Shown: in pieces, positions 1,872 to 40,966 of the stretch
How the letters are laid out: the number at the start of each line of letters is the position of its first letter
Position numbering within the stretch: the stretch's first letter is position 1
Virus record (IMG/VR): IMGVR_UViG_3300028907_000004
Location: 14,464 to 78,463 of that record
Strand: one strand, 5' to 3'
DNA: 64,000 nt
From: a virus
Lineage: Duplodnaviria; Caudoviricetes
The notes under the pieces: generated by a model
Told to the model about the DNA's origin: nothing
What the model saw: only the letters and a program-made list of their open reading frames with translations
Databases searched by the model: none
Position numbers and translations under genes: made by a program

Positions 1872-3011
1872 TCAATCCGAAACACCATACTTTCTTTTCA
1901 ATGCGGCGACAGAAAGCGGCCTCCCCCGCTGGTCAACCAGGTCAGTAAAAGACAAGCCCTTTTCCTTCCAGACGCTCCACCTACGCTGCCCCAATATGTC
2001 TTTCTGGCGGCTTTCCGATAACCTCGCAAACCAGTCCCCATAAGTAGTGGACGCGGGAACTGCTCCGTCCATAGAAGCGCGTTTGCCCCCCTTTACGAAG
2101 TCATCATAAATCGCATCTATCTTGGGGCTGTAGCCTAACTCTTCCCACGACTTTGTAACAGGCACCAAAGTAGAACGGCAGTTCCAATGTGCCGGGGGGC
2201 CACCAAGAAAAGCCTGTGTATGTCCGATAGGCTGACCGTCCAAAGTATATAACTTTCCGTCACGAGCACGACACAATGGAGTGGTGCGATCATCAAGAGT
2301 CGCATGCCACATCATCCCCTTCATTACGTCTTCGTGTCGGCGTATAATTCGCATCCGTACATCTTCGGCTACCGCCTGTACAGACGTTCTAGCCAACGCC
2401 TCTGCCTGGCGTATGGATGTTGAGGACACGCCCCCAGAATAGTATGGCGTAGTTTTCAACTTTCCGTCCGTTCCTCTGTACTGGACGCTTCGGCTAGAAG
2501 ACAGACCACGTACCCGTTCCGTCAGCTGCTTTACCGACTCGCCTTGAAGGTAGCCCATCCGAATTTCCCTGGCAAATCGTTGCTGGAAGGACTGTTTTTG
2601 TCCCTTCCACCATTCCGCAGACGGGGCACCCTCTATGAGTACGTTGGAAGCTGCTGCCACCAGTTGTTCTTCTGTGAGAGATATGGACGGAAAGGCCACG
2701 CCCAGCCCAGCTTTCAAGGCTTTGTTAAAGAAAACCACTTCTGCCCCGGCTACGGACAGCAGGGCCGACGAGTGGCTGGTTTCAAGTGTGGTGTACGTGG
2801 AGGCTACCTGTGCCCGGGCCTGGACAAGCATAGCCTCCATGCGTTTCTTGGTTCTTGCGCCTACCGTTTCCGACGCCAGAGATTCCATAAGGGACTTCTC
2901 CAATTCAAGGAGAAGTCCCGTGATCGTAAGTCTGGAATCTTCGGCTACTCGCATCAAATCTATTGTGTGGGCCACAAAGGCGTCCACCAAATAGAAATTA
3001 ACAGAGGCCAT
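1872..3011 (-). CDS. head morphogenesis protein (SPP1 gp7 / Mu F family)
   Basis: ARTSVQAV...WHATLDDRTTPLCRARDG...PPAHWNCRSTLVP motifs. Confidence 0.9.
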   Translation of the reverse strand: MASVNFYLVDAFVAHTIDLMRVAEDSRLTITGLLLELEKSLMESLASETVGARTKKRMEAMLVQARAQVASTYTTLETSHSSALLSVAGAEVVFFNKALKAGLGVAFPSISLTEEQLVAAASNVLIEGAPSAEWWKGQKQSFQQRFAREIRMGYLQGESVKQLTERVRGLSSSRSVQYRGTDGKLKTTPYYSGGVSSTSIRQAEALARTSVQAVAEDVRMRIIRRHEDVMKGMMWHATLDDRTTPLCRARDGKLYTLDGQPIGHTQAFLGGPPAHWNCRSTLVPVTKSWEELGYSPKIDAIYDDFVKGGKRASMDGAVPASTTYGDWFARLSESRQKDILGQRRWSVWKEKGLSFTDLVDQRGRPLSVAALKRKYGVSD

Positions 3012-3014
3012 GGG

Positions 3015-4406
3015 CTACTCCTCCGGGGTTTCGTCTTCGCCTTCCGGGGTTCCGACCCCGCCGGTGTCCGCATCCGCATTCATATCCAGAGGGAATGGCG
3101 TTCCGTCCAGAATATCCTGTTTTTCCTGTTCGGCGGTCTTCCCTTCTGGAATGAGTTCGCCCCTGGCCAGGTTGTAGAACAACGTATCGAAAGACATCAA
3201 ACCGGACGCCACAAGTTTGTTAAGAGCCACAATCGTATTGGCATCCAGGGTAATGTCTACGAAGTCCATATTCAGCTTGAATTCCAGTTCCTCTTCAAGC
3301 GTGCCGCCCATCCACCAATTAAGGAAGTGAAGTGCCGCTTTCATGGTAGCGTTGTGGGCTACGATCATTTTGGTAAGCACCGAAACTTCGCCAGTGCGCT
3401 TGAGAAGGACGGCCTGTGCAGTTTCTACTCCCGCCCTTGAGGGTTCCAGAAGGCGCGTGCCCATAAGGGCCATTTCGAGCCGAATGTCTTCATACCGCTG
3501 TTTGTTGGGATTCACGCCGTGGCCGTGGGATTCGCAGAAGCCCAAACGAGCTTCCGTGCTGGCGATGCCTACCGCCTTGGACGACCCCAGAACAATCTTG
3601 TCCACTTCGGACTGATCCGCGCCGGTAACATACAGGAAAGGGTTTCCTGTAAAATACAGGGAATTGGCGTAGTCCGCTCCCACACGTAGCAGTTCCGCAT
3701 TCTTTCGAACCAAATCCAGCATCGGCGGTTTTTCCACTTCCGGCTTGCTGTGGGTTACGTTACAGAAAAAGAACGGAATCTGGGTAAGCGGTCGGCCCAG
3801 CTTCTTGAGAACTCTGGAGTCTCCGCCAGACAAAGAAGGGGATTCGTGGATGGTAACTTCCACCACCCCGTTCTCGTTGATTCGCAGTTCCCGATACCGG
3901 GTAACTTCCTTGATTGTGTACCTGTCCTCTTCTACTTCCTCGATTTCCCGAAGAACCACAAGAGTCATGTCATTTTTCCAGTTAATGATGTCTTCTGCGG
4001 GGTACTTGCGAAGGAAGTGCCGCCCGTCTTCCGTCACATCCACGAGAATGCCAAAACGGCCCACCTCAAACTGGTCGTCCAGACACTGCTTACTAAAGGA
4101 CCGAAGGCCGTTGCCCTCATAGTCAATGTCTTCCTGAATTGCCTGGACACGGGGCGGAAGTTCGATAGTTGGCGGCTTTCTGATAATTACGCCAGACAAA
4201 CCTTCTTTGGTAAGTTCCGCGCCATTGAAAAAGAAGGATCGCTGGACATATGCGGAATAGTCCGTATCCTTCGACATCCCAGAAGGTCTGGGAAGGTATT
4301 CGATAGAGTGGTTCTTGACCTGCTCTTCACCTTCAAAAAAATCTCGACACATCGCCCAGGCTTTCTTGCGGCGTTTGTACTGCTTGTGTTCGGTATTGAC
4401 GGGCAT
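3015..4406 (-). CDS. portal protein (DUF4055 type)
   Basis: 463 aa, YLPRP...Y-AY-QRS-FFN N-terminus, located between terminase and gp7-like gene. Confidence 0.85.
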   Translation of the reverse strand: MPVNTEHKQYKRRKKAWAMCRDFFEGEEQVKNHSIEYLPRPSGMSKDTDYSAYVQRSFFFNGAELTKEGLSGVIIRKPPTIELPPRVQAIQEDIDYEGNGLRSFSKQCLDDQFEVGRFGILVDVTEDGRHFLRKYPAEDIINWKNDMTLVVLREIEEVEEDRYTIKEVTRYRELRINENGVVEVTIHESPSLSGGDSRVLKKLGRPLTQIPFFFCNVTHSKPEVEKPPMLDLVRKNAELLRVGADYANSLYFTGNPFLYVTGADQSEVDKIVLGSSKAVGIASTEARLGFCESHGHGVNPNKQRYEDIRLEMALMGTRLLEPSRAGVETAQAVLLKRTGEVSVLTKMIVAHNATMKAALHFLNWWMGGTLEEELEFKLNMDFVDITLDANTIVALNKLVASGLMSFDTLFYNLARGELIPEGKTAEQEKQDILDGTPFPLDMNADADTGGVGTPEGEDETPEE

Positions 4407-29041: not shown

Positions 29042-29275
29042 CGTCTTATGGTGACGCTGATACTCCTGGCCGAATGGTTACCCACTCCCCGTAACCTTCG
29101 GCTGGGAACCCCCACCCGGAAAACGGGCACGAAGCCCGCAACGACTACCGCACCGCAGAGGCCGGTGGCTGGTCTGGGGAGAGATAACGACAGAACGCCC
29201 TGTGAACGGCGTAATTGGAAAGCGCGGCCCCAGCCGTCCCGCCTACCATAACGGGACCACGCAACATCCGGGCCC
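29041..29275 (+). ncRNA. candidate structured non-coding RNA
   Basis: stems GCCGAA/TTCGGC + GGTTAC/GTAACC, CCCG/CGGG, ACGCC/GGCGT, CTGGGG/CCCCAG, GTCCCG/CGGGAC; followed by terminator. Confidence 0.4.
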
Positions 29276-29315
29276 AACCCGCCCCCGGCCAGCTTCGGGG
29301 GCGGGTTTCTTTTTC
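29276..29315 (+). terminator. intrinsic terminator
   Basis: 12-bp stem AACCCGCCCCCG/CGGGGGCGGGTT then TCTTTTT. Confidence 0.8.
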
Positions 29316-29333
29316 AGAAAAAGAGAGGTTGTT

Positions 29334-30416
29334 ATGAAAAGACTCAAGACCCCGTTGACCATTCGTGGGGATTGCTTGTACTGCCCGCTTTCTCTTTCCC
29401 TCGACACCTACTGGAACTGTCTTTGTGACTGTTTGCATTGCTACCTTCGCCGCTTGAATAGGACTTGGGGAACGGACCTGCGCCCCGTAGAGCACGAGCT
29501 TGTGGAAAGAATCCTCACCAACGGTCTGAAGAACAAGAACCCCAAGACGCCGCTTGCGCACGCCCTAGCCGCCAAGAAGACGCTTCGCTTTGGAAACAAA
29601 GCCGATCCCTTTCAACCCGCTGAAAGAATCTACCTTGTAAGCGCAGAAGCCCTTCGCGCACTCAAAAAACTCCAATGGTCCTTCGTAATCCAGACCATGG
29701 TTACTGACGTTATGATGGACTACGAGCGCATCATAATGAATTGTCGGGACTTCGCTTGGATTCAGCCTATTATCAGCCCCGGCATGGAAAAGGACTGGGA
29801 AGTTCTGGAGCGTAAGCGCACGACAAACCCGATCCAACGCCTAGAGCATCTTGTTGCCTTGAAGAAGCAGGGCATGCGCGTAGCTGTAAATGGTGAGCCC
29901 TTTATTCCCGGCTTCCATACGGTTCAGGATTTTGAAGATACATGTAAACTTCTCCGGTCCTACGGCATCCGAAGATACAACACCTATAACTTTCACTTCA
30001 ACGATCATGTGGCCAAGAATATGCACGAAGCTGGCATAGACATCCGGGCCATTTACGAAAACAACCAAGACGGGCCTTGGAAGAAAATACTCGTCCAGTT
30101 GTTAGATATTGCCAAGAAATACGACATTCTGTTGGGCTGTCCGGACTTTGTGAATACAGGCCCGCAATATCGGGAAATGGCCAATACCTGCTGCGGCGTA
30201 GACGTTTCCAACCCAATGACCTTCAATACGCATACATGGAAACGTATGATCCAAGACGGGGTTCCCCTTGAGGAAATCTACGAGTCCACCAAAGACGGCG
30301 TAGGGGATGAGGAAGAGGGCCGCAAAGTGCTGTTTGGGGAAGGTCCGCAAGGAATCTATACGATGGAAGATGCCGGACTTGTAAAGAAGGGTAAAGTTCT
30401 GGACACCAAGGAGTAG
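29334..30416 (+). CDS. radical SAM enzyme, SplB/COG1533-like (paralog 1)
   Basis: CLCDCLHC = CxxxCxxC; DPFQPAE motif. Confidence 0.88.
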   Translation: MKRLKTPLTIRGDCLYCPLSLSLDTYWNCLCDCLHCYLRRLNRTWGTDLRPVEHELVERILTNGLKNKNPKTPLAHALAAKKTLRFGNKADPFQPAERIYLVSAEALRALKKLQWSFVIQTMVTDVMMDYERIIMNCRDFAWIQPIISPGMEKDWEVLERKRTTNPIQRLEHLVALKKQGMRVAVNGEPFIPGFHTVQDFEDTCKLLRSYGIRRYNTYNFHFNDHVAKNMHEAGIDIRAIYENNQDGPWKKILVQLLDIAKKYDILLGCPDFVNTGPQYREMANTCCGVDVSNPMTFNTHTWKRMIQDGVPLEEIYESTKDGVGDEEEGRKVLFGEGPQGIYTMEDAGLVKKGKVLDTKE

Positions 30417-32001: not shown

Positions 32002-33438
32002 ATGACCAAGAAAGAACTTCTTCAGATGGATTACTGGGAACTGCGTAAAGTGGTTTCCAAACTCGTTCCTCGCACGTTCCGTCTTCGGGAAGACGCCAGA
32101 AAGGGCGAAGCGGTCAAGGAAAAGGGCAGAAAAAAGAATTACCACCAATACGATCTGGTGGGACAGGAAATGACCAAGCGGGAACGCCTTCTGAATACGG
32201 AAGAGGTCAACAGCTTTCTCGAAATATCCTGCCGGGCCCAAGCCTGCCCTATGCCGCTGAATTTGGACGTGTATGACGGCCTTCTTTGTGGCTTCAAATG
32301 CATCTATTGCTACGCCGACGCCTTCCGCGCCTCCCTGTACACATCTTTCTTCGATAACAGCAAATCCGTGGGACTTCGCCACTGTAATCCGGACTTCTAC
32401 AAGGCGAAGCTGGACGATCTGTTCAATAAGTCCCTGGGAAAAGACCCGTTGGAAATCAAGAGCGACGTTGGAAAGGCTCTGGCCAAGCGCATTCCCATTC
32501 GTTTCGGTATTCGGTTTGAAGACTTTCTGCCCGCAGAAAAGTCGAAAGGGATCAGCCTGGAACTTCTGAATTACCTCCGGAAAGCCCAGTACCCGCTGAT
32601 GATCAACACCAAGTCCAACCTCGTAGGCGAAGACGCCTACGTGAAGGCTTTGAGTGGGAATAAGGCCAAGACCGCCGTACACATCACTATGATTTCCTGT
32701 GACGAAGACTTCTTGCGGGTAATTGAGCCGGGGGCACCCACCTTTGAAAAACGCATCCAAGCTGCCAAGAATCTCGTGGACGCTGGCGTGCGTGCCGTTG
32801 CCCGAATCGAACCCTATATGGTGTTCTTGAACGATTCGCAGGACATGGTTCAAGAATACTTTGGACGAATGAAGGAAGCTGGGGTCACGCATCTTACCTT
32901 TGACACATACTCCTATTCCGCCAACAACCCCGGAATCCGCCAGAATTTTGTTAGAAGGGGCTATGACTGGGAACGTATGTTCCTCCTTACCTCCGATTCC
33001 CAGGCCATAGGCTCGCTCCTGCTCTCTAAATTCATGGAGATGTTTAGAGAGCAGGGGTTTTCCGCTTCCAGTTTTGATATGGGCGGCGTTCCCGATAACA
33101 ACGACCCCATTTGTTGTTCTGTAGGCGATTGGTTTAAGGATGCTGGCTATAATTGGGGTTGCGTGGTTGGGGCGGTTCGGTACATCAAGGAACGCGGCCT
33201 GAAGCCTACGTCGTGGAATAATTTCCACAGATACGTGATGCGCAACGGCGGCTTCCTATCTAGGGTTCTTGAAGAAGAGGTCAAGGAACTCTGGAACCTG
33301 GAAGGAAATGCGTCCTACTTCGTCAATTGGGGTCGCGGTATTGAGCCTTGCGGTCATGATGAGCATGGAATCCTCTGGCATTACAGGGAAAACCCCGAAA
33401 CCGACTTTCGCTATAAAATACTGGAGGGGGTGGTATAA
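32002..33438 (+). CDS. radical SAM enzyme, SplB/COG1533-like (paralog 2)
   Basis: CGFKCIYC = CxxxCxxC; EDFLPAE and INTKS motifs; RIEP. Confidence 0.88.
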   Translation: MTKKELLQMDYWELRKVVSKLVPRTFRLREDARKGEAVKEKGRKKNYHQYDLVGQEMTKRERLLNTEEVNSFLEISCRAQACPMPLNLDVYDGLLCGFKCIYCYADAFRASLYTSFFDNSKSVGLRHCNPDFYKAKLDDLFNKSLGKDPLEIKSDVGKALAKRIPIRFGIRFEDFLPAEKSKGISLELLNYLRKAQYPLMINTKSNLVGEDAYVKALSGNKAKTAVHITMISCDEDFLRVIEPGAPTFEKRIQAAKNLVDAGVRAVARIEPYMVFLNDSQDMVQEYFGRMKEAGVTHLTFDTYSYSANNPGIRQNFVRRGYDWERMFLLTSDSQAIGSLLLSKFMEMFREQGFSASSFDMGGVPDNNDPICCSVGDWFKDAGYNWGCVVGAVRYIKERGLKPTSWNNFHRYVMRNGGFLSRVLEEEVKELWNLEGNASYFVNWGRGIEPCGHDEHGILWHYRENPETDFRYKILEGVV

Positions 33439-34719: not shown

Positions 34720-35160
34720 ATGGCCAAGAAAGAAGCACCCAAGACCACGAAGAAAGCCGCCCCCGCCGCCAAGAAGACCGCCGCCAAGAAGACCGCCGCC
34801 AAGGGCAAGCCCACCGGCAAAGAATCCATTCTCGACAAGGCCCGTGCCGCACGCGAAGCCGCCAAGGAAAACGCCCAGGCGTCCATCTCCAAGGACGGCC
34901 TTCTGAAGGAAATCGCCAAGAAGCTGGGCATTGCCAAGGACGACGTTCAGACCGTCGTTGACGCCTTCCTCGACGCCGCCGGACAGCACCTGGCCGCTGG
35001 CGAGAAGGTCAGCGTCCACGGCTTCGGCATCTTCAACACTTCCGTCATGGCTGCTCGTGACGGAGTCAACCCCCTGACCGGCGAACCCATGCACATCGCG
35101 GAATCCACCCGCGTCACGTTCAAGGCTTCCACCGCCCTGAAGGAACTCGTCAACGGGTAA
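34720..35160 (+). CDS. HU/IHF-family DNA-binding protein with Lys/Ala-rich N-terminal tail
   Basis: VSVHGFGIF...ARDGVNPLTGEPMHI...VTFKASTALKE. Confidence 0.92.
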   Translation: MAKKEAPKTTKKAAPAAKKTAAKKTAAKGKPTGKESILDKARAAREAAKENAQASISKDGLLKEIAKKLGIAKDDVQTVVDAFLDAAGQHLAAGEKVSVHGFGIFNTSVMAARDGVNPLTGEPMHIAESTRVTFKASTALKELVNG

Positions 35161-35164
35161 TTCC

Positions 35165-35986
35165 ATGCTCAATTACCTTACGCTCATGGAACAGGCGGGG
35201 ATCGCCCCGAACTTTTGGACCAGCAGGGCGTACTTGGAAAGAGCAGGAGCAGTAGAACAGACAAAAGGGAACCTCATCTGGCTGGAAGCGGATGAGGTTC
35301 CGCTTTTTCCCACCCTGTCCTTTTCTGGTATGATCGCACCTATGCGAGAATGGCCGGTTCAGTATTGCTGGAGCGACTTTGAGGGCTTCTCCTCCGAAAC
35401 GACCAACAAGGAATTTCTGGATTATGAGTTTATCTATAACCCAACCGACTTTCTTGAGATGGCTGGAGGAAAATGGGCTGTGTTTAGAAAAAACAGCCGT
35501 AAATTTCCACGCCGTTTCGAAGGGTCCGTCTATTCCAGAGGATATGTCCCTAGCTACGGGGATTTGGTCGGATTGCTACAAAGGTGGGCTAGTCGTTTTA
35601 ACGAAGACGACACTATTCACGACGCCGCCATTATCCTAAAGTATTTGGAAGACCTTTCCCCTGGTGTGGATTTTGGCTGGAAAACGCTTCGATTGAATAA
35701 TACCCATAAACCAGAAGATTTGGTGGGAATTAATATCTGGGACCGTAACTGGAAGTATATCAACTTCCGGTACTGTTTTTGTGATCCCGATTACCCTTTT
35801 ATTTCAGAATACATGCGATGGTTGTTTTATACGGACCCCGCCATACTTGCGCAGAAGCGCCTTGTATGTGACGGCGGGTCCGTAGATCGTCCAGAATTAA
35901 AAGCCTTCAAAGAAAAAATGAACCCGCTCCAAGTCCGTGAAGTATATACTTGGGGCAAAGAACCAGGAGAAGGATATGGAGATTGA
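35165..35986 (+). CDS. DUF2156 / LPG_synthase_C-like aminoacyl-tRNA-dependent transferase
   Basis: DYEFIYNPTDFLEMAGGKWAVFRKNSRKF and C-terminal DGGSVDRPELKAFKEKMNP resemble the family's DYIY..DL..L.GKK...RN and D.G..GLR..K.SY.P motifs; no TM domain. Confidence 0.65.
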   Translation: MLNYLTLMEQAGIAPNFWTSRAYLERAGAVEQTKGNLIWLEADEVPLFPTLSFSGMIAPMREWPVQYCWSDFEGFSSETTNKEFLDYEFIYNPTDFLEMAGGKWAVFRKNSRKFPRRFEGSVYSRGYVPSYGDLVGLLQRWASRFNEDDTIHDAAIILKYLEDLSPGVDFGWKTLRLNNTHKPEDLVGINIWDRNWKYINFRYCFCDPDYPFISEYMRWLFYTDPAILAQKRLVCDGGSVDRPELKAFKEKMNPLQVREVYTWGKEPGEGYGD

Positions 35987-36998
35987 TAGAAAGCAGCTAC
36001 TGGACGCGCTTACCCTGGCCCGTCCCGGTCTTGCCTCTTCGGACGTTGTAGAACAGGCGTCCATGTTCGTGTTTCGTCCCAAGGACATTGTAACCTTTAA
36101 TGACGAACTTTGCGTGCGCGTCAAGATCAAGTCCGGTATCGAAGGCGCTGTCCAGGCTCAAGAGCTTTACGCCTACCTTTCCAAGAGTAAGGCCGAAAAG
36201 CTCACGATGGAAACGACGGAAGACGAACTCATCATCAAGGCCGGGAAGCGCGCAAGCGTAGGCATCCGGCTGTCCAGCAAAATCTACCTTCCGGTGGACG
36301 GGATCAATGATGCGGAATCCTTTGAACCGCTTCCCAAGAACTTTACCAAGGCCCTGTCCCTGGTATCGCAGACGGCGGCGAAAAACGCCTCAAGCATGCC
36401 CATTCTTGCTGCTCTTCATTTCGTAGGGGACAAGGTGGAATCCTGCGACAATTTCCGGATCACCGCCTACACATTTGAAGAAGGCACCGACTTCCCCGAA
36501 TTTTTGCTTCCGGCAAACATGGTCAAGGAAGTGCTCAAATTTGAGCCGGTAGAGTATTCTGTTGTCGAGGGTTGGGCGCACTTCCGAACTGCCGAGGGTG
36601 TGTGGCTCTCGTGCCGTACCGTGGCTGCGGGGCCGAAGGGCTACCCGGACCTGTCCGGAATCGTAGAAGTTGAAGGCGTCACTATCGAATTTCCCGAAGG
36701 TTTCGCAGAAGTTCTGGACAGGGCTTCCGTTTTTGTTGATAAATCCGCTACCTTGGACGAGTTTGTAACAATTTCTGTAAAAGAGGGTAGAGCGTCTGTC
36801 GTAGCGGAAGGGACTATGGGTTGGTTCAGGGAATCGGTGAAAGTAGACTCTGATAATCCGGAATGCTCTTTTAACGTCAATCCCGGCTTTCTGTCTGGAA
36901 TCCTTCCGCTTCTGTCCAACGCTATCGTGGGCGACAACTACCTGCGACTGGACGGTGAGGATTTCCTTCACGTTATGTGTTTGTGTGTAGAAAAATAG
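35976..36998 (+). CDS. dnaN: DNA polymerase sliding clamp (beta-like)
   Basis: IDRKQLLDAL start, ESCDNFRI, YPDL, three-domain length 340 aa. Confidence 0.8.
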   Translation: MEIDRKQLLDALTLARPGLASSDVVEQASMFVFRPKDIVTFNDELCVRVKIKSGIEGAVQAQELYAYLSKSKAEKLTMETTEDELIIKAGKRASVGIRLSSKIYLPVDGINDAESFEPLPKNFTKALSLVSQTAAKNASSMPILAALHFVGDKVESCDNFRITAYTFEEGTDFPEFLLPANMVKEVLKFEPVEYSVVEGWAHFRTAEGVWLSCRTVAAGPKGYPDLSGIVEVEGVTIEFPEGFAEVLDRASVFVDKSATLDEFVTISVKEGRASVVAEGTMGWFRESVKVDSDNPECSFNVNPGFLSGILPLLSNAIVGDNYLRLDGEDFLHVMCLCVEK

Positions 36999-37007
36999 GA
37001 GAACGAC

Positions 37008-37187
37008 ATGGGCGGCAAAAGACAGCAGAGAATCGTTTCTATGGAAGCGCAGGGGAAACTGGACTTTGAGAAGTACGGCCACCGCCGCTTCCGCTGGCGC
37101 AAGCCGTGTGCCGAAGAACACGCCTACATGCGCGGTTACGCCAAGGCCAAGTATGGCGTTTTTGTTCGATATGGCCGGCATTTCTAA
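37008..37187 (+). CDS. 59-aa basic peptide (MGGKRQQR...)
   Basis: AGGAG RBS, not in supplied ORF track. Confidence 0.55.
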   Translation: MGGKRQQRIVSMEAQGKLDFEKYGHRRFRWRKPCAEEHAYMRGYAKAKYGVFVRYGRHF

Positions 37188-37197
37188 ATAATCAACA

Positions 37198-37421
37198 AGC
37201 GGGGCGGCGTGGATGGTGACACGCTTTTAGAACTAGAAAGCTCGACAATGCTAGCCATGGCCTACGGCAACGCAGGATGTAATGGCCGGGGCGGACAAGG
37301 CCGCATAACCCGAATGGGCATTCAAAGTTCCTCCTCAATGTTCCGGTATGGGCGGGACAAGCGCTCGCCCGATGCGTTGAGATGATACCGAGCACGGCCG
37401 GTTCGATTCCGGCCCCCGCTT
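37198..37421 (+). ncRNA. tRNA-like RNA with ~150-nt expanded variable arm
   Basis: acceptor AGCGGGG/CCCCGCT, D-arm GCGTG/CACGC, T-arm GCCGG-TTCGATT-CCGGC, non-canonical anticodon-like hairpin, GCTCG/CGAGC closing a structured insert. Confidence 0.7.
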
Positions 37422-37560
37422 TTCACATAATTCCATCCAGACACGGGGTGGAGATCACGGAAAGGGAAGACCCCACCCAAACGGGGTACTGTCTAACCGT
37501 CCTGACCGAGACAGCGCAAAGCGAGTTGTGGTGCGTAGGAGGGACTTTCTAGGGAGGAGC

Positions 37561-37998
37561 ATGAACGACGAACCTACAGAATGGCGTACCTGGGGAATAT
37601 ACGCTATGTCTAAAGAAGGCTACATGACCATAGCTTCCGAAATCCCAGGAGGGAAGCCCGCCGGAACGTATCTCATCCCACGAATAGTAGGAAGCGTAAC
37701 ACCCAGATACCGCCTGACCAAGAAAGGAGTCTTGATCACCTACAAGATTTCTGACCTTTTGAAAAAGATCTGGGGAGTCAAGCGAACCCTCACCAATGAA
37801 AACGCAGCGGAAATGAGAAAAAACGCCTACGCCTGGAATGAGCGTAGACGGGCCTTGCGAGAAGAACAGGAAACTATACGCCGCCCAAGACTGGCGCGTT
37901 CCCGCACAGAAATAGACCCCCAGGACGACTACGGGAACGAAGACCCCTTTATGGACCCGTCCCACCCTCAAAACGACCCCTTTTCAAACTGGAGGTAG
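37561..37998 (+). CDS. hypothetical protein
   Basis: GGAGGAG RBS, 145 aa. Confidence 0.65.
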   Translation: MNDEPTEWRTWGIYAMSKEGYMTIASEIPGGKPAGTYLIPRIVGSVTPRYRLTKKGVLITYKISDLLKKIWGVKRTLTNENAAEMRKNAYAWNERRRALREEQETIRRPRLARSRTEIDPQDDYGNEDPFMDPSHPQNDPFSNWR

Positions 37999-38000
37999 TC

Positions 38001-38354
38001 GTGGCCAGACGAAAACCGCCGAAGACGAAGGAAATCACGCTCAAAGAGCTTCTGTATAAAATACGGAAGACCTATGACGACGCCATAGACGAACTACGCA
38101 AGGAACAGGAACAGAAATTGCGGGAAGCCATTACCAAATTCTGCCCACTTCCCAAAGAAAAAGAGTTTCTTGTGGCGGATTACTCCTTCAAAGGGAAAAC
38201 TTTCCAATACAAAGACTTTCGGCATCAATGGGGCGATGTTATTCTGTTCGGCGGGACGCTTCGTAATAATGGCGAAGTATCAGAAAAACAGTATTGCGAG
38301 TCCAGAATCAACACCGAGCATATAAAAATCACAGTACCCGCAGAGGAAGAGTAA
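38001..38354 (+). CDS. hypothetical protein
   Basis: GGAGG RBS with GTG start. Confidence 0.65.
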   Translation: MARRKPPKTKEITLKELLYKIRKTYDDAIDELRKEQEQKLREAITKFCPLPKEKEFLVADYSFKGKTFQYKDFRHQWGDVILFGGTLRNNGEVSEKQYCESRINTEHIKITVPAEEE

Positions 38355-40966
38355 TGGCCGGATTCTTTCAGAAGGATGACGTATCACACGGAGCTAGGGT
38401 CAAGCCCAAGCAAAAAGTCGAAGCGTTTGGAACTTGCGAGACTTGCGGGCTGTATGAATATGGAAATTCCGTCAAACCCTTTGGAGAGAACAGAAAGCGC
38501 ATAATGATTGTGACCGAAACCCCTTCAGAAGGGGAGGCCCGAAAAGGCAAGATGTGGTCTGGGGAGCAAGGGCAGCTTCTCCGATCCATTTTGCGCGAGA
38601 ACGGAATTGACCTGAATCGGGATTGCGTGTCCATCTACGCAGTACGATGTAACATTCCAGAAGACCGCAACCCCCAACCCAACGAAGTTATCGGGTGTCG
38701 GGATAAACTGTTCAAAGCCATCGAGAAATACGAGCCTAGACTGGTCGTATCATTGGGCTATTTTGCTTTGTTTGCTCTTATAGGGCATCGGATGGGCGAC
38801 GGGCTGGGCGGCACGCTTGATCGCTGGAGAGGGGCCAAAATTCCGTATCACGAAATCGGAGCGTGGCTGTGTCCTACATTCCATCCTATCTACGTGATGG
38901 CAAACGAGAAAAACCCCAACGTCGAACTCTACTGGGAACGGGACATCAAGAATGCTATATGCCAGCTGGACAAAGAACTTCCAAATCCCATTAACGAAGA
39001 TTCGGTTGACGTTTTGGTGGAGCCGAAAGACATCAAAGATCGGCTTGGTTATCTCCTTTCCCGTCCAGACGAAATCAGAGCCGCAGTAGACTGGGAAACA
39101 ACGGGCCTGAAGCCCCATGCCAAGGGGCACCGCATCTTTACCGCCGGATTTTCTACGGGGCTTGATAACACATTTGCCTTTAAGATGGAACCGCAGTACC
39201 GGGAACCGCTCATACAAATCGCCAAAAGCCGAACCGTGGCGAAAATAGCGGCCAACATGAAATTCGAAGATACGTGGGCCCGGCAATGCCTGGGGACACA
39301 TATCAACAATTGGTATTGGGACACTATGGTTGCGCAGCATGTTATCGACAACCGCCGTTACATTACCGGCCTCAAATTCCAATCCGCTGTCCGTTATGGC
39401 GTATGGGATTATGATTCTGAAATCTCTCCTTACTTGAGGGCCGAAGACGAAAGCAACGCAAACGCCTTCAACCGCATATATCAGGCCCCCTTACCGAAAC
39501 TGCTAAAGTACAACGGTATGGACTGCCTACTTGAGTTCCTTCTCCATGAAGATCAGATTTCCGAAGTAAACGAACAAGGCACTATGGACGGCTACATGCT
39601 ATTACATGCCGGAATACTTGCGCTGTCCGATATGGAATGGCGCGGCCTTCCGGTAGAAGATACGCACGTGGTCCAAGAGATCAGACGCCTTGAACAGGAA
39701 GTCGCAGAAATCGAACAAAGCATATGGGCGTCCAAAGAAGGGAAGAAATGGAAAAAGAAGTATGGAACGGACGCCAATTGGAATAGTAATCAGCAGTTTG
39801 TAGAAGTGCTTTCTGAATGCGGCGTAGAGTTTGAAAAGAAGACCGCCAGTGGGCAGTTCGCCGCCGACAAGGGCGTTCTGGAGATGTTGGACCATCCCAT
39901 TGCGAAGCAAATCCTACGTGCCAGAAAGCTGACGAAGAACGGGGGAACATTCCTGGCCAATATCCGGAAAGAGGCCGTAAGTGGCTCTCTCCATCCAATA
40001 CACAACCTTCACAAGGTTATCACATTTCGGTCTTCCTGCGAATCCCCGAACACGCAGAACATGCCTAAACGTGACGAAGAGTCCATGAAGATCGTCCGGG
40101 CGTCCTTTCGCGCCCCGAAGGGTAAGTGTATTGCTGAAATCGACTATTCCGGTGTTGAGGTCCGGGTGGGGTGTTGCTACCACCGGGACAAAAATATGGA
40201 GCGGTACATTCTCGACACTTCTACCGACATGCATAGGGACGAAGCCTGTTCCATATTTTGTTTTGATCCCTATTACATCAACACTGAAGTAATTCAGGGA
40301 AGCGACGACTTGGCCCAGAAATACTTCAAGGCGATTCGAAACAGCGCAAAAAACGGATGGGTCTTTGCCCAGTTCTATGGTGACTGGTACAAGGCTTGTG
40401 CGAAGAACATCTGGAATCAGATCACTCACTGGAACCTCAAGGCCCCGGACGGACGGCCCTTGTTTGACCATCTCCGAAAACAGGGAATCAAAAACCTCAA
40501 GGATTTCGAATCCCATCTCAAGGACTGTGAGCGGAAACTCTGGGAAGAACGCTTTGGTGGGTACGGTAAGTGGAAGGAGAAGACCTGGAAGAAGTATATG
40601 AAACAGGGCTACCTGGACACCTATACGGGTATGCGGTTGTCGGCCCTTTCCTCCAGAAATGAAATCCTCAATGCCCCGATCCAGGGAAGCGCGTTCCACT
40701 GCCTGTTATGGTCCGTTATTGAAATGAACAAGAAGCTCAAGAAGGAAAAGTGGGAAACCGTGCCAGTAGCCCAGATTCATGACTCTTGTATTTTCATAAC
40801 CACTCCTGACGAGATAGATGAATTGTATAAAGTAGCACACGAGATAATGTGCGTAAAGATTGTAAAACACTGGCCCTGGCTAGTCATTCCACTTGAAATA
40901 GATATGGACATTACAGAACCGGGAGGGGCCTGGAGTGAGCAAGAGTCCTATAAGCCCACAAAATAG
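38354..40966 (+). CDS. polA: family A DNA polymerase with N-terminal UDG-like and 3'-5' exonuclease domains
   Basis: CETCGL..TFHP (UDG family 4-like); DWETTGL (ExoI); IDYSGVEVR, R-x3-K-x7-YG, QIHDS (motifs A, B, C). Confidence 0.93.
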   Translation: MAGFFQKDDVSHGARVKPKQKVEAFGTCETCGLYEYGNSVKPFGENRKRIMIVTETPSEGEARKGKMWSGEQGQLLRSILRENGIDLNRDCVSIYAVRCNIPEDRNPQPNEVIGCRDKLFKAIEKYEPRLVVSLGYFALFALIGHRMGDGLGGTLDRWRGAKIPYHEIGAWLCPTFHPIYVMANEKNPNVELYWERDIKNAICQLDKELPNPINEDSVDVLVEPKDIKDRLGYLLSRPDEIRAAVDWETTGLKPHAKGHRIFTAGFSTGLDNTFAFKMEPQYREPLIQIAKSRTVAKIAANMKFEDTWARQCLGTHINNWYWDTMVAQHVIDNRRYITGLKFQSAVRYGVWDYDSEISPYLRAEDESNANAFNRIYQAPLPKLLKYNGMDCLLEFLLHEDQISEVNEQGTMDGYMLLHAGILALSDMEWRGLPVEDTHVVQEIRRLEQEVAEIEQSIWASKEGKKWKKKYGTDANWNSNQQFVEVLSECGVEFEKKTASGQFAADKGVLEMLDHPIAKQILRARKLTKNGGTFLANIRKEAVSGSLHPIHNLHKVITFRSSCESPNTQNMPKRDEESMKIVRASFRAPKGKCIAEIDYSGVEVRVGCCYHRDKNMERYILDTSTDMHRDEACSIFCFDPYYINTEVIQGSDDLAQKYFKAIRNSAKNGWVFAQFYGDWYKACAKNIWNQITHWNLKAPDGRPLFDHLRKQGIKNLKDFESHLKDCERKLWEERFGGYGKWKEKTWKKYMKQGYLDTYTGMRLSALSSRNEILNAPIQGSAFHCLLWSVIEMNKKLKKEKWETVPVAQIHDSCIFITTPDEIDELYKVAHEIMCVKIVKHWPWLVIPLEIDMDITEPGGAWSEQESYKPTK

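Follow-up and report, generated by a model that had tools for sequence, protein, structure and literature searches.

A tRNA-derived, apparently non-decoding RNA gene with exchangeable cores in the replication module of an uncultured phage

The DNA analyzed here, called the window, is a stretch of 64,000 nucleotides (nt) of the IMG/VR virus record IMGVR_UViG_3300028907_000004 (bases 14464-78463 of 78,463 bp), which is rated complete. In its replication module, two co-oriented open reading frames (ORFs) are separated by a 373-nt stretch without a credible ORF, and the + strand of this gap holds the gene of a tRNA-shaped RNA of 224 nt. A preliminary description made from the letters alone had proposed a non-decoding tRNA mimic at this place, with a large structured insert. 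The parts of the RNA are listed below, with pairing taken from the minimum free energy (MFE) and centroid folds where indicated.

37198-37421, + strand: tRNA-shaped RNA of type A, 224 nt
37198-37204, + strand: acceptor 5' strand AGCGGGG (positions 1-7), pairing 7/7 with 37414-37420
37207-37211 and 37220-37224, + strand: D hairpin, stem GCGTG/CACGC, loop GATGGTGA with GG in the loop
37225-37239, + strand: A/U-rich linker UUUUAGAACUAGAAA, unpaired in the MFE and centroid folds
37240-37393, + strand: exchangeable structured core of type A, closed by GCTCG (37240-37244) and CGAGC (37389-37393) in the MFE fold
37247-37252/37317-37322 and 37254-37258/37282-37286: sub-helices of the core
37265-37272: GNRA hairpin CG-GCAA-CG in the core
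37287-37312: hairpin CGGG-GCGG-ACAAGG-CCGC-AUAA-CCCG in the core
37334-37341/37374-37381 and 37350-37356/37364-37370 (GGGCGGG/CUCGCCC): further helices of the core
37397-37401 and 37409-37413, + strand: canonical T arm, stem GCCGG/CCGGC, loop TTCGATT
37414-37421, + strand: acceptor 3' strand CCCCGCT and discriminator U37421, followed by TTTCAC

The acceptor AGCGGGG/CCCCGCT with discriminator U, the D arm GCGTG-GATGGTGA-CACGC and the T arm GCCGG-TTCGATT-CCGGC are all present as previously described. Since U37421 is followed by TTTCAC, no CCA is encoded. The closure of the insert (~145 nt) by GCTCG/CGAGC forms in the MFE fold, and the inner stems GCGG/CCGC, CTCAATG/CGTTGAG and GGGCGGG/CTCGCCC are found in the sequence together with the two ACAAG loops. 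At the stringency tested, ACAAG-loop hairpins were neither enriched nor rarer than expected by chance. The shell itself is unusual for this DNA. Counting both strands, the window has a single T arm that is immediately adjoined by a 7-mer with 7/7 Watson-Crick pairing to another 7-mer upstream, and the same pattern appeared in 3 of 200 dinucleotide shuffles. The RNA combines a 7-bp acceptor stem with a T loop of the UUCRANY type and a GG-containing D loop, the D arm being found in types A and C only, as defined below.

Relatives of the locus were searched in several collections. No DNA match was found in the INPHARED phage collection with blastn and megablast, and IMG/VR contained one close relative (L002/L027). 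A 16-mer scan of IMG/VR returned 63 loci, only one of which is related; the other 62 are chance matches and were reused as controls. Metagenome contigs gave no match by the clamp protein or by the pattern of the leader that follows the RNA, and the leader pattern found nothing in genome contigs either. Eleven more loci with the upstream gap were recovered from ENA and Logan assemblies via homologues of the 145-amino-acid (aa) protein encoded downstream. The gap is retained in every relative that has DNA there, and all recovered loci have the RNA at the same place, with three types of core on one shell:

Type A: the window, L071-73 and, as a 3' part, L078; 224 nt
Type B: L002, L079, L083/84, L070, L076, L077 and L080; 212-216 nt, same acceptor, different core
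Type C: L068/69; 162 nt, acceptor and D-hairpin stem as in type A, different 110-nt core

Only the 7-bp terminal stem, U73 and an adjacent hairpin of 5 bp and 7 nt are common to all types and invariant. Acceptor positions 2-7 do not vary across the three types, and the stem is followed by a U in all relatives. At position 1:72, six sequences have A-U and three have G-C; A.C is seen once, in a recombinant contig that starts at that base. This covariation supports the 7-bp stem; the alternative reading as a tRNA-Gly with its first nucleotide at G37199 is therefore not favored. In the D hairpin, substitutions are confined to the loop (GATGGTGA, GACGGTGA or GACGGCGA), and the stem of type C (L068) is identical, whereas the first hairpin of type B differs (GGUGGC-GAYGAM-GCCRUU). 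The T arm of type C, GUCGG-UUCGAUU-CCGAC, shows a compensatory change from C-G to U-A relative to type A (pair 50:64).

The cores of types A, B and C are unrelated in sequence, and each is structured. How sharply they are delimited is seen when the window is compared with L076, which carries core B. Up to 37205, the two share 96.5% identity over 2.16 kb; from 37206 to 37408 they have nothing in common, and the similarity resumes at 37409 with 84% identity. We conclude that the core has been exchanged between near-identical phages, with breakpoints inside the conserved shell.

Several observations were made at more distant or altered loci. In L078 (60-150), the clamp gene is directly followed by ATGGGCGGGACAAGC. 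In the most distant relative, L074 (1-30), a perfect 11-bp hairpin (GATCGTGACTG-GGAAA-CAGTCACGATC) lies upstream of the leader in place of a tRNA-like stem end, and the contig ends there. L098 (3999-4139) contains a 141-nt element in a 270-nt gap; AAGGUAC/GUACCUU forms its 7-bp terminal stem and GUGGG-UUCAAAU-CCCAC its T arm, and it also has a long hairpin. The element is not called by ARAGORN. A DUF2156 homologue with 41% identity is encoded 1.9 kb downstream of it, and the element may represent this kind of RNA in a fourth, distant version. Two further odd tRNA-like stretches also went without an ARAGORN call. In L119 (11248-11370), the acceptor TGCCATG/CATGGCA is accompanied by a class-II-like D arm and by two T-arm hairpins with a spacing of 37 nt. 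In L117 (12200-12520; the same in L120), two T arms are separated by 85 nt, and a canonical D-arm sequence comes after them.

The substitution patterns were examined for signs of selection on an RNA structure. The type B structure comprises 58 pairs; 99.5% of the alignment cells are paired, and six pairs are changed on both sides. Its covariation score of 0.130 compares with 0.079 in column shuffles, none of which (0/500) reached it, and controls in which the partner was slid by 1-3 columns contained no double changes. The compensatory pairs that the preliminary description had asked for in related phages are thus present (six in type B, plus 1:72 and 50:64). Conserved G.U pairs and switches from A-U to G.U, which would be A.C on the other strand, fix the + strand and argue for a structure of RNA, not of DNA. 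Among the tetraloops, all variation stays within the GNRA family (GUGA/GCGA in type B, GCAA/GUAA in type A). The seven substitutions seen in type A (L071, L078), assuming the register GGGCGGG/CUCGCCC, lie in loops or junctions, preserve GNRA, or turn G.U into G-C, and none breaks a helix.

These patterns bear on the possibility that the element is a decaying tRNA-Cys or tRNA-Met gene, disrupted by insertions and without function. Such a relic would account for a shell indistinguishable from real tRNA halves, for the deletion in L078 and for the fact that no tool sees a tRNA. However, the shell pairs 1:72 and 50:64 covary, substitutions avoid helices, the cores keep their pairing through six double changes, and the gap has persisted wherever there is DNA to judge it. 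We regard decay as very unlikely.

No detector recognized the element as a known RNA. ARAGORN at its default threshold and Rfam at the gathering threshold made no call, and a permissive Rfam scan of 37100-37560 returned only tRNA-Sec (16.7 bits, E=1.4). Relaxed ARAGORN settings gave mutually inconsistent guesses ("intron-tRNA", "permuted tmRNA" at the 80% threshold; Ser, Gly, Thr and others), which were treated as noise. When the core was deleted in silico, ARAGORN at the default threshold called a tRNA(AAC) for type A and none for type C.

An anticodon-like hairpin (CTTTT-AGAACTA-GAAAG) had been proposed for the linker. It did not hold up: two of its bases belong to other helices (C37224 to the D stem, G37240 to GCTCG), and without them UUUU/GAAA is left. 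The hairpin is absent from both the MFE and the centroid fold, and types B and C contain nothing that corresponds to it. As had been pointed out, its loop AGAACUA lacks U33 and has G33 instead; it also has U37 and hence no R37. With no detector call and a G33/U37 loop confined to type A, a canonical decoding tRNA was rejected. An intron-containing tRNA was rejected as well, since the inserts (89-150 nt) are unrelated between types and have no Rfam group I match at E<=10; the anticodon loop would still be non-canonical after removal of the insert, which speaks against splicing to a standard tRNA. The element is also not an attP remnant of a tRNA 3' half, because both stem halves and the D arm are present and there is no integrase: a search of the genome found neither a tyrosine nor a serine recombinase. 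A YrlA or Y RNA was discarded, with no TROVE match in the genome and no Rfam match. The view of the element as a non-decoding tRNA mimic is borne out by a shell that is real and conserved, an anticodon-like loop that is not, and the absence of an ARAGORN or Rfam call. On these comparative grounds we conclude that the + strand element is a selected, structured, tRNA-derived, non-decoding RNA gene.

The preliminary description had also considered a reduced transfer-messenger RNA (tmRNA), which would tag stalled proteins with ATQDVMAGADKAA. Like tmRNA (SsrA), the RNA has ends that form an acceptor, an adjacent T arm, a long helix leading to a large domain in place of the anticodon arm, and no anticodon. 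The frame at 37267-37308 indeed translates to ATQDVMAGADKAA followed by a stop and ends Ala-Ala-stop, and the permuted-tmRNA guess listed by ARAGORN at the 80% threshold would fit. However, position 3:70 is C-G in all ten sequences, so the alanyl-tRNA synthetase determinant G3.U70 is absent. The GCA codon lies inside a GNRA tetraloop hairpin and reads GUA in L071 (loop GUAA), and types B and C have no equivalent frame, the core of type B containing 1-nt indels. In addition, the phage RNA is only 162-224 nt long, has no conserved tag frame or resume codon and no identified series of pseudoknots, is negative with ARAGORN (default) and Rfam, and its cores are not homologous between close relatives. 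A tmRNA-like role is extremely unlikely, and neither a tRNA nor a tmRNA function on the ribosome is possible for this RNA.

The shell matches specific tRNAs. Genuine tRNA genes of more than 120 bacterial genomes contain its last 23 nt (T arm and acceptor 3' strand) letter for letter; for a random 23-mer, the expectation is about 0.02 matches. This 3' half is found in tRNA-Met(CAU), mostly of the initiator type, and in tRNA-Cys(GCA), for example of Burkholderiales. The Burkholderiales tRNA-Cys reads GGCGGGG...GCCGGUUCGAUUCCGGC-CCCCGCC-U-CCA; its acceptor and U73 are identical to the shell of the L002 type, and its T arm equals that of type A. The acceptor of the window differs from it only by A1-U72. 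Acceptor positions 2-7 are those of both tRNA-Met (most of the initiator type, with C1 and A72-A73) and tRNA-Cys. In contrast to these tRNAs, the phage RNA has no GCA or CAU anticodon arm, a different D arm, no encoded CCA, and a core of 100-150 nt between the D and T arms.

The surroundings of the RNA belong to a replication and DNA-metabolism module that also includes a DnaB-like helicase and a pyridoxal phosphate (PLP) enzyme. The features relevant here, including proteins of the radical S-adenosylmethionine (SAM) type, are:

29202-30416: ORF labelled radical-SAM paralogue, a label not confirmed by a Pfam match
32002-33438: radical-SAM protein, with a Pfam match
34720-35160: HU
35165-35986, + strand: P0014, a soluble 273-aa tandem-GNAT protein of the DUF2156 / MprF C-terminal / FemX fold, two genes and 1.2 kb upstream of the RNA
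35937-36998: sliding clamp
37008-37187, + strand: co-oriented ORF of a 59-aa basic protein, directly upstream of the gap
37185-37192, + strand: A/T-rich -10-like box TAAATAAT, 6-7 nt ahead of the first paired base, a candidate promoter
37422-37560, + strand: structured leader of the 145-aa gene, a neighbor and possibly a separate element
37561-37998, + strand: co-oriented 145-aa ORF, directly downstream of the gap
38294-40966: family A DNA polymerase fused to uracil-DNA glycosylase

The polymerase shares only about 25% identity with its counterpart in Vibrio phage SSP002-like siphoviruses, which makes this an uncultured, distant lineage. The 145-aa protein belongs to no Pfam family, PHROG gave no match below E=0.06, and the AlphaFold2 model of the protein (pLDDT 50) was too poor for a structure search. 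The 59-aa basic protein accompanies RNA types A and B and is absent with type C. In L070, the 59-aa ORF and the RNA are separated by an inserted gene for an N6/N4 DNA methyltransferase (352-1278), and genes for Vut_1 (a queuosine-precursor transporter) and DpdA (a 7-deazaguanine DNA transglycosylase) follow the downstream ORF (2082-3339); close relatives thus differ in the DNA-modification cargo around the RNA locus. ARAGORN found no tRNA or tmRNA gene (0) in the window and the rest of the 78-kb genome, which leaves the tRNA-shaped RNA as its sole tRNA-like gene. A CCA-adding enzyme, a reverse transcriptase, Ro60 (TROVE) and RtcB had no match in the genome.

P0014 itself has no Pfam match, but 28 of 76 members of its family match PF09924, and the family profile matches PDB 2hqy (E=6.7e-5). 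Its AlphaFold2 model (pLDDT 94) gave 2hqy, MprF (C-terminal domains), A-PGS/L-PGS, Sba18/Sbb17 and FemX as top Foldseek hits; Sba18/Sbb17 are peptide synthases that depend on aminoacyl-tRNA. The assignment of the predicted structure to the fold of the aminoacyl-tRNA-dependent transferase superfamily holds. The family comprises 293 clusters at 50% identity, and the nearest neighbor clusters by language model (ESM Atlas) are mostly viral. The gene is kept in all relatives that have the RNA.

This neighbor raises the possibility that the RNA is a dedicated aminoacyl carrier: a CCA-tailed RNA, charged via its acceptor end by a host synthetase that reads chiefly this end (with Cys as the best guess), would pass its amino acid to the DUF2156-fold transferase off the ribosome. 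U73, G2-C71 and C3-G70 are the bacterial Cys determinants of the acceptor, and U73 alone confers Cys identity on minihelices (PMC9976931). The phage acceptor has all three, in addition to its identity with Burkholderiales tRNA-Cys in the L002 type. The transferase gene lies upstream on the same strand, clusters with two radical-SAM enzymes (a Pfam match existing for one only) and a PLP enzyme, and stands in a genome with no other tRNA-like gene. The 273-aa proteins of the window (core A) and of L076 (core B) are 98% identical, which fits recognition of the shared acceptor end only. However, the GCA anticodon, which this RNA lacks, is a further strong requirement of cysteinyl-tRNA synthetase (PMC9976931), and the occurrence of the same 3' half in tRNA-Met genes makes the identity ambiguous. 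The large, selected and exchangeable core would be left unexplained.

The carrier idea was further confronted with 56 other viral loci of the P0014 family (+/-6 kb). They contained 10 T-arm-like hairpins and 6 shells in 625 kb, compared with 7 and 5 in 548 kb of the 62 control loci, and ARAGORN detected a single tRNA at them. There is no excess of shells, and we take this to mean that the family does not generally need an RNA of its own. The literature on DUF2156 in phage DNA modification yielded nothing specific. Of the amino-acid donor suggested earlier, the acceptor determinants and the nearby DUF2156-fold gene stand, while the family-wide comparison and the cores do not fit. We consider a dedicated carrier unlikely. 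Its specific form, in which an anticodon-less mimic of the tRNA-Cys type serves as private donor to a DUF2156-fold transferase that, with radical-SAM and PLP enzymes, builds a DNA or metabolite modification, is somewhat less likely still. If true, it would be a tRNA-like cofactor for non-ribosomal chemistry, kept off the ribosome by design.

The invariant part of the RNA is exactly the acceptor/T minihelix with U73, and its acceptor positions 2-7 equal those of bacterial tRNA-Met and tRNA-Cys genes. This could also be the signature of a decoy: the RNA would act as a sponge for a host factor by which tRNAs are sensed or attacked at their acceptor end or elbow, with core swaps as the mark of an arms race. 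Candidate targets would be acceptor-targeting toxins, nucleotidyltransferase or acetyltransferase toxins, and tRNA-triggered defenses. The hot-spot-like locus, with three alleles in near-identical backgrounds, is consistent with this. A decoy for anticodon nucleases, as proposed in the preliminary description, is disfavored because the three versions share no anticodon arm. Against decoys in general, no defense or counter-defense gene is linked to the RNA, a structured core would not be needed, and the idea is purely inferential. We judge a decoy to be about as improbable as the private donor to the transferase.

The sequences bordering the RNA were inspected for signals of transcription and processing. 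The motif TAAATA noted earlier is present at 37185-90, 7 nt upstream, as part of the A/T-rich box. A/T-rich boxes lie at an equal distance in all relatives, though their sequences differ. A conserved ACATAATTCC box has no repeat copies within the window. At the other end, the acceptor 3' strand and U37421 run into a U-run (37414-37424 in all). The leader that follows (37422-37560) is 89% identical to that of L002, compared with about 75% in the flanking coding DNA, and contains indels of 1-2 nt, which shows that it is not coding. RNAalifold paired GUCCU..CC with the GGAGGG Shine-Dalgarno sequence and predicted, just upstream of this helix, a hairpin with two compensatory pairs. The leader looks like a translational control element of the 145-aa gene. 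A T-box was dropped as an explanation for it: GGGUGGA could pair with a UCCA 3' end, but a four-base match is expected by chance, and Rfam has no T-box there at E<=10.

The RNA could thus be a cis-acting punctuation mark rather than a trans-acting molecule, namely a processing or termination signal between the message for the clamp and the 59-aa protein and the leader of the next operon. It does sit between co-oriented genes, a U-run follows its stem, no strong promoter was detected, and a very conserved leader with a helix sequestering the Shine-Dalgarno sequence comes directly after it. However, a minimal minihelix would do for punctuation, yet cores of 100-150 nt with GNRA loops and compensatory changes have been kept in each type, and a -10-like box lies right at the 5' end in all relatives. 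We find punctuation rather unlikely, nearly on a level with the dedicated carrier.

We favor the reading as a stand-alone gene whose product is a stable, non-decoding RNA with a tRNA chassis; recognition by tRNA enzymes would provide ends and stability, and the exchangeable core would be the effector. Transcription would start from the A/T-rich box just upstream and end at the U-run. The ends of the RNA form a tRNA acceptor stem with U73, and the D hairpin and T arm give a tRNA elbow, while the anticodon arm is replaced by a compact core of 100-150 nt with GNRA loops and, in type B, also a T loop. The acceptor/T minihelix would be recognized by host tRNA enzymes, namely the CCA-adding enzyme, RNase Z or 3' exonucleases and, in the case of a 5' leader, RNase P. 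Trimming and CCA addition may then give defined ends and tRNA-like stability. The core, which varies between near-identical phages, would be the working part and may bind a host or phage factor.

Several results weigh against this reading. In type B, the hairpin beside the acceptor (GUCGG-UGAAAAC-CCGAC) has no T-loop sequence, which makes the "elbow" of this type non-canonical; GG-UUCGAUC-CC, a hairpin with a T loop, is located more internally. Taken as a single sequence, the RNA folds with no better energy than shuffles (z = -0.93). The covariation test, with three to four independent lineages and a structure derived from the same sequences, is supportive but not conclusive. Consensus scans found no full sigma-70 promoter and no intrinsic terminator. 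Finally, a deletion between two ATGGGCGG repeats (at the start of the 59-aa ORF and at window position 37347-37354) has cost L078 this ORF and the first 150 nt of the RNA. The RNA may therefore be dispensable, although the deletion could be either a natural variant or an assembly artefact. Taking both sides together, we consider the reading of a stable RNA on a tRNA chassis about evenly balanced between right and wrong.

The closest known counterparts are species 1 RNA of phage T4 (rnaC, 139 nt) and its neighbor rnaD. Species 1 RNA has been without a known function for about fifty years. In its computed fold, the ends pair into an acceptor-like stem that adjoins a canonical T arm (CCGGG-UUCGAAU-CCCGG), and hairpin inserts replace the anticodon arm. 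There is no sequence similarity by eye between it and the phage RNA, and neither has an Rfam family. The RNA described here differs from rnaC by its full D hairpin, its perfect 7-bp stem of Cys/Met-type sequence and its three interchangeable cores. Moreover, rnaC sits in a cluster of tRNA genes, whereas the phage RNA lies in a replication module with the sliding clamp and DNA polymerase, in a genome without a tRNA gene. The role of T4 species 1 RNA is still unknown (PMC3014915, PMC9697503). Our search of the literature for anticodon-less tRNA-like RNAs of phages returned nothing specific.

Two other groups of RNAs show partial likeness. YrlA is a non-decoding RNA that mimics T and D arms and also occurs in phages; however, its ends form the Ro-binding stem and its tRNA-like part is distal, and the phage studied here has no Ro60/TROVE gene. 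In the TMERs of murid herpesvirus 68 and in engineered tRNA scaffolds, a tRNA-like module would recruit tRNA processing enzymes and stabilize an unrelated cargo, which may be a functional analogy. These are eukaryotic viral or artificial RNAs without homology to the phage RNA, and their cargo is placed after the tRNA or takes the position of the anticodon stem only.

For the question of what such RNAs do, this locus is a cleaner system than T4, with a single chassis RNA and no tRNA cluster. It offers three natural core alleles in near-isogenic phages, signs of selection on shell and cores, and a transferase homologue two genes away. If the chassis serves only for processing and stability, the RNA would be a natural counterpart of the engineered tRNA scaffold, and its cores would be effectors. 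Should the RNA be charged, phage chemistry would include a new type of amino-acid carrier.

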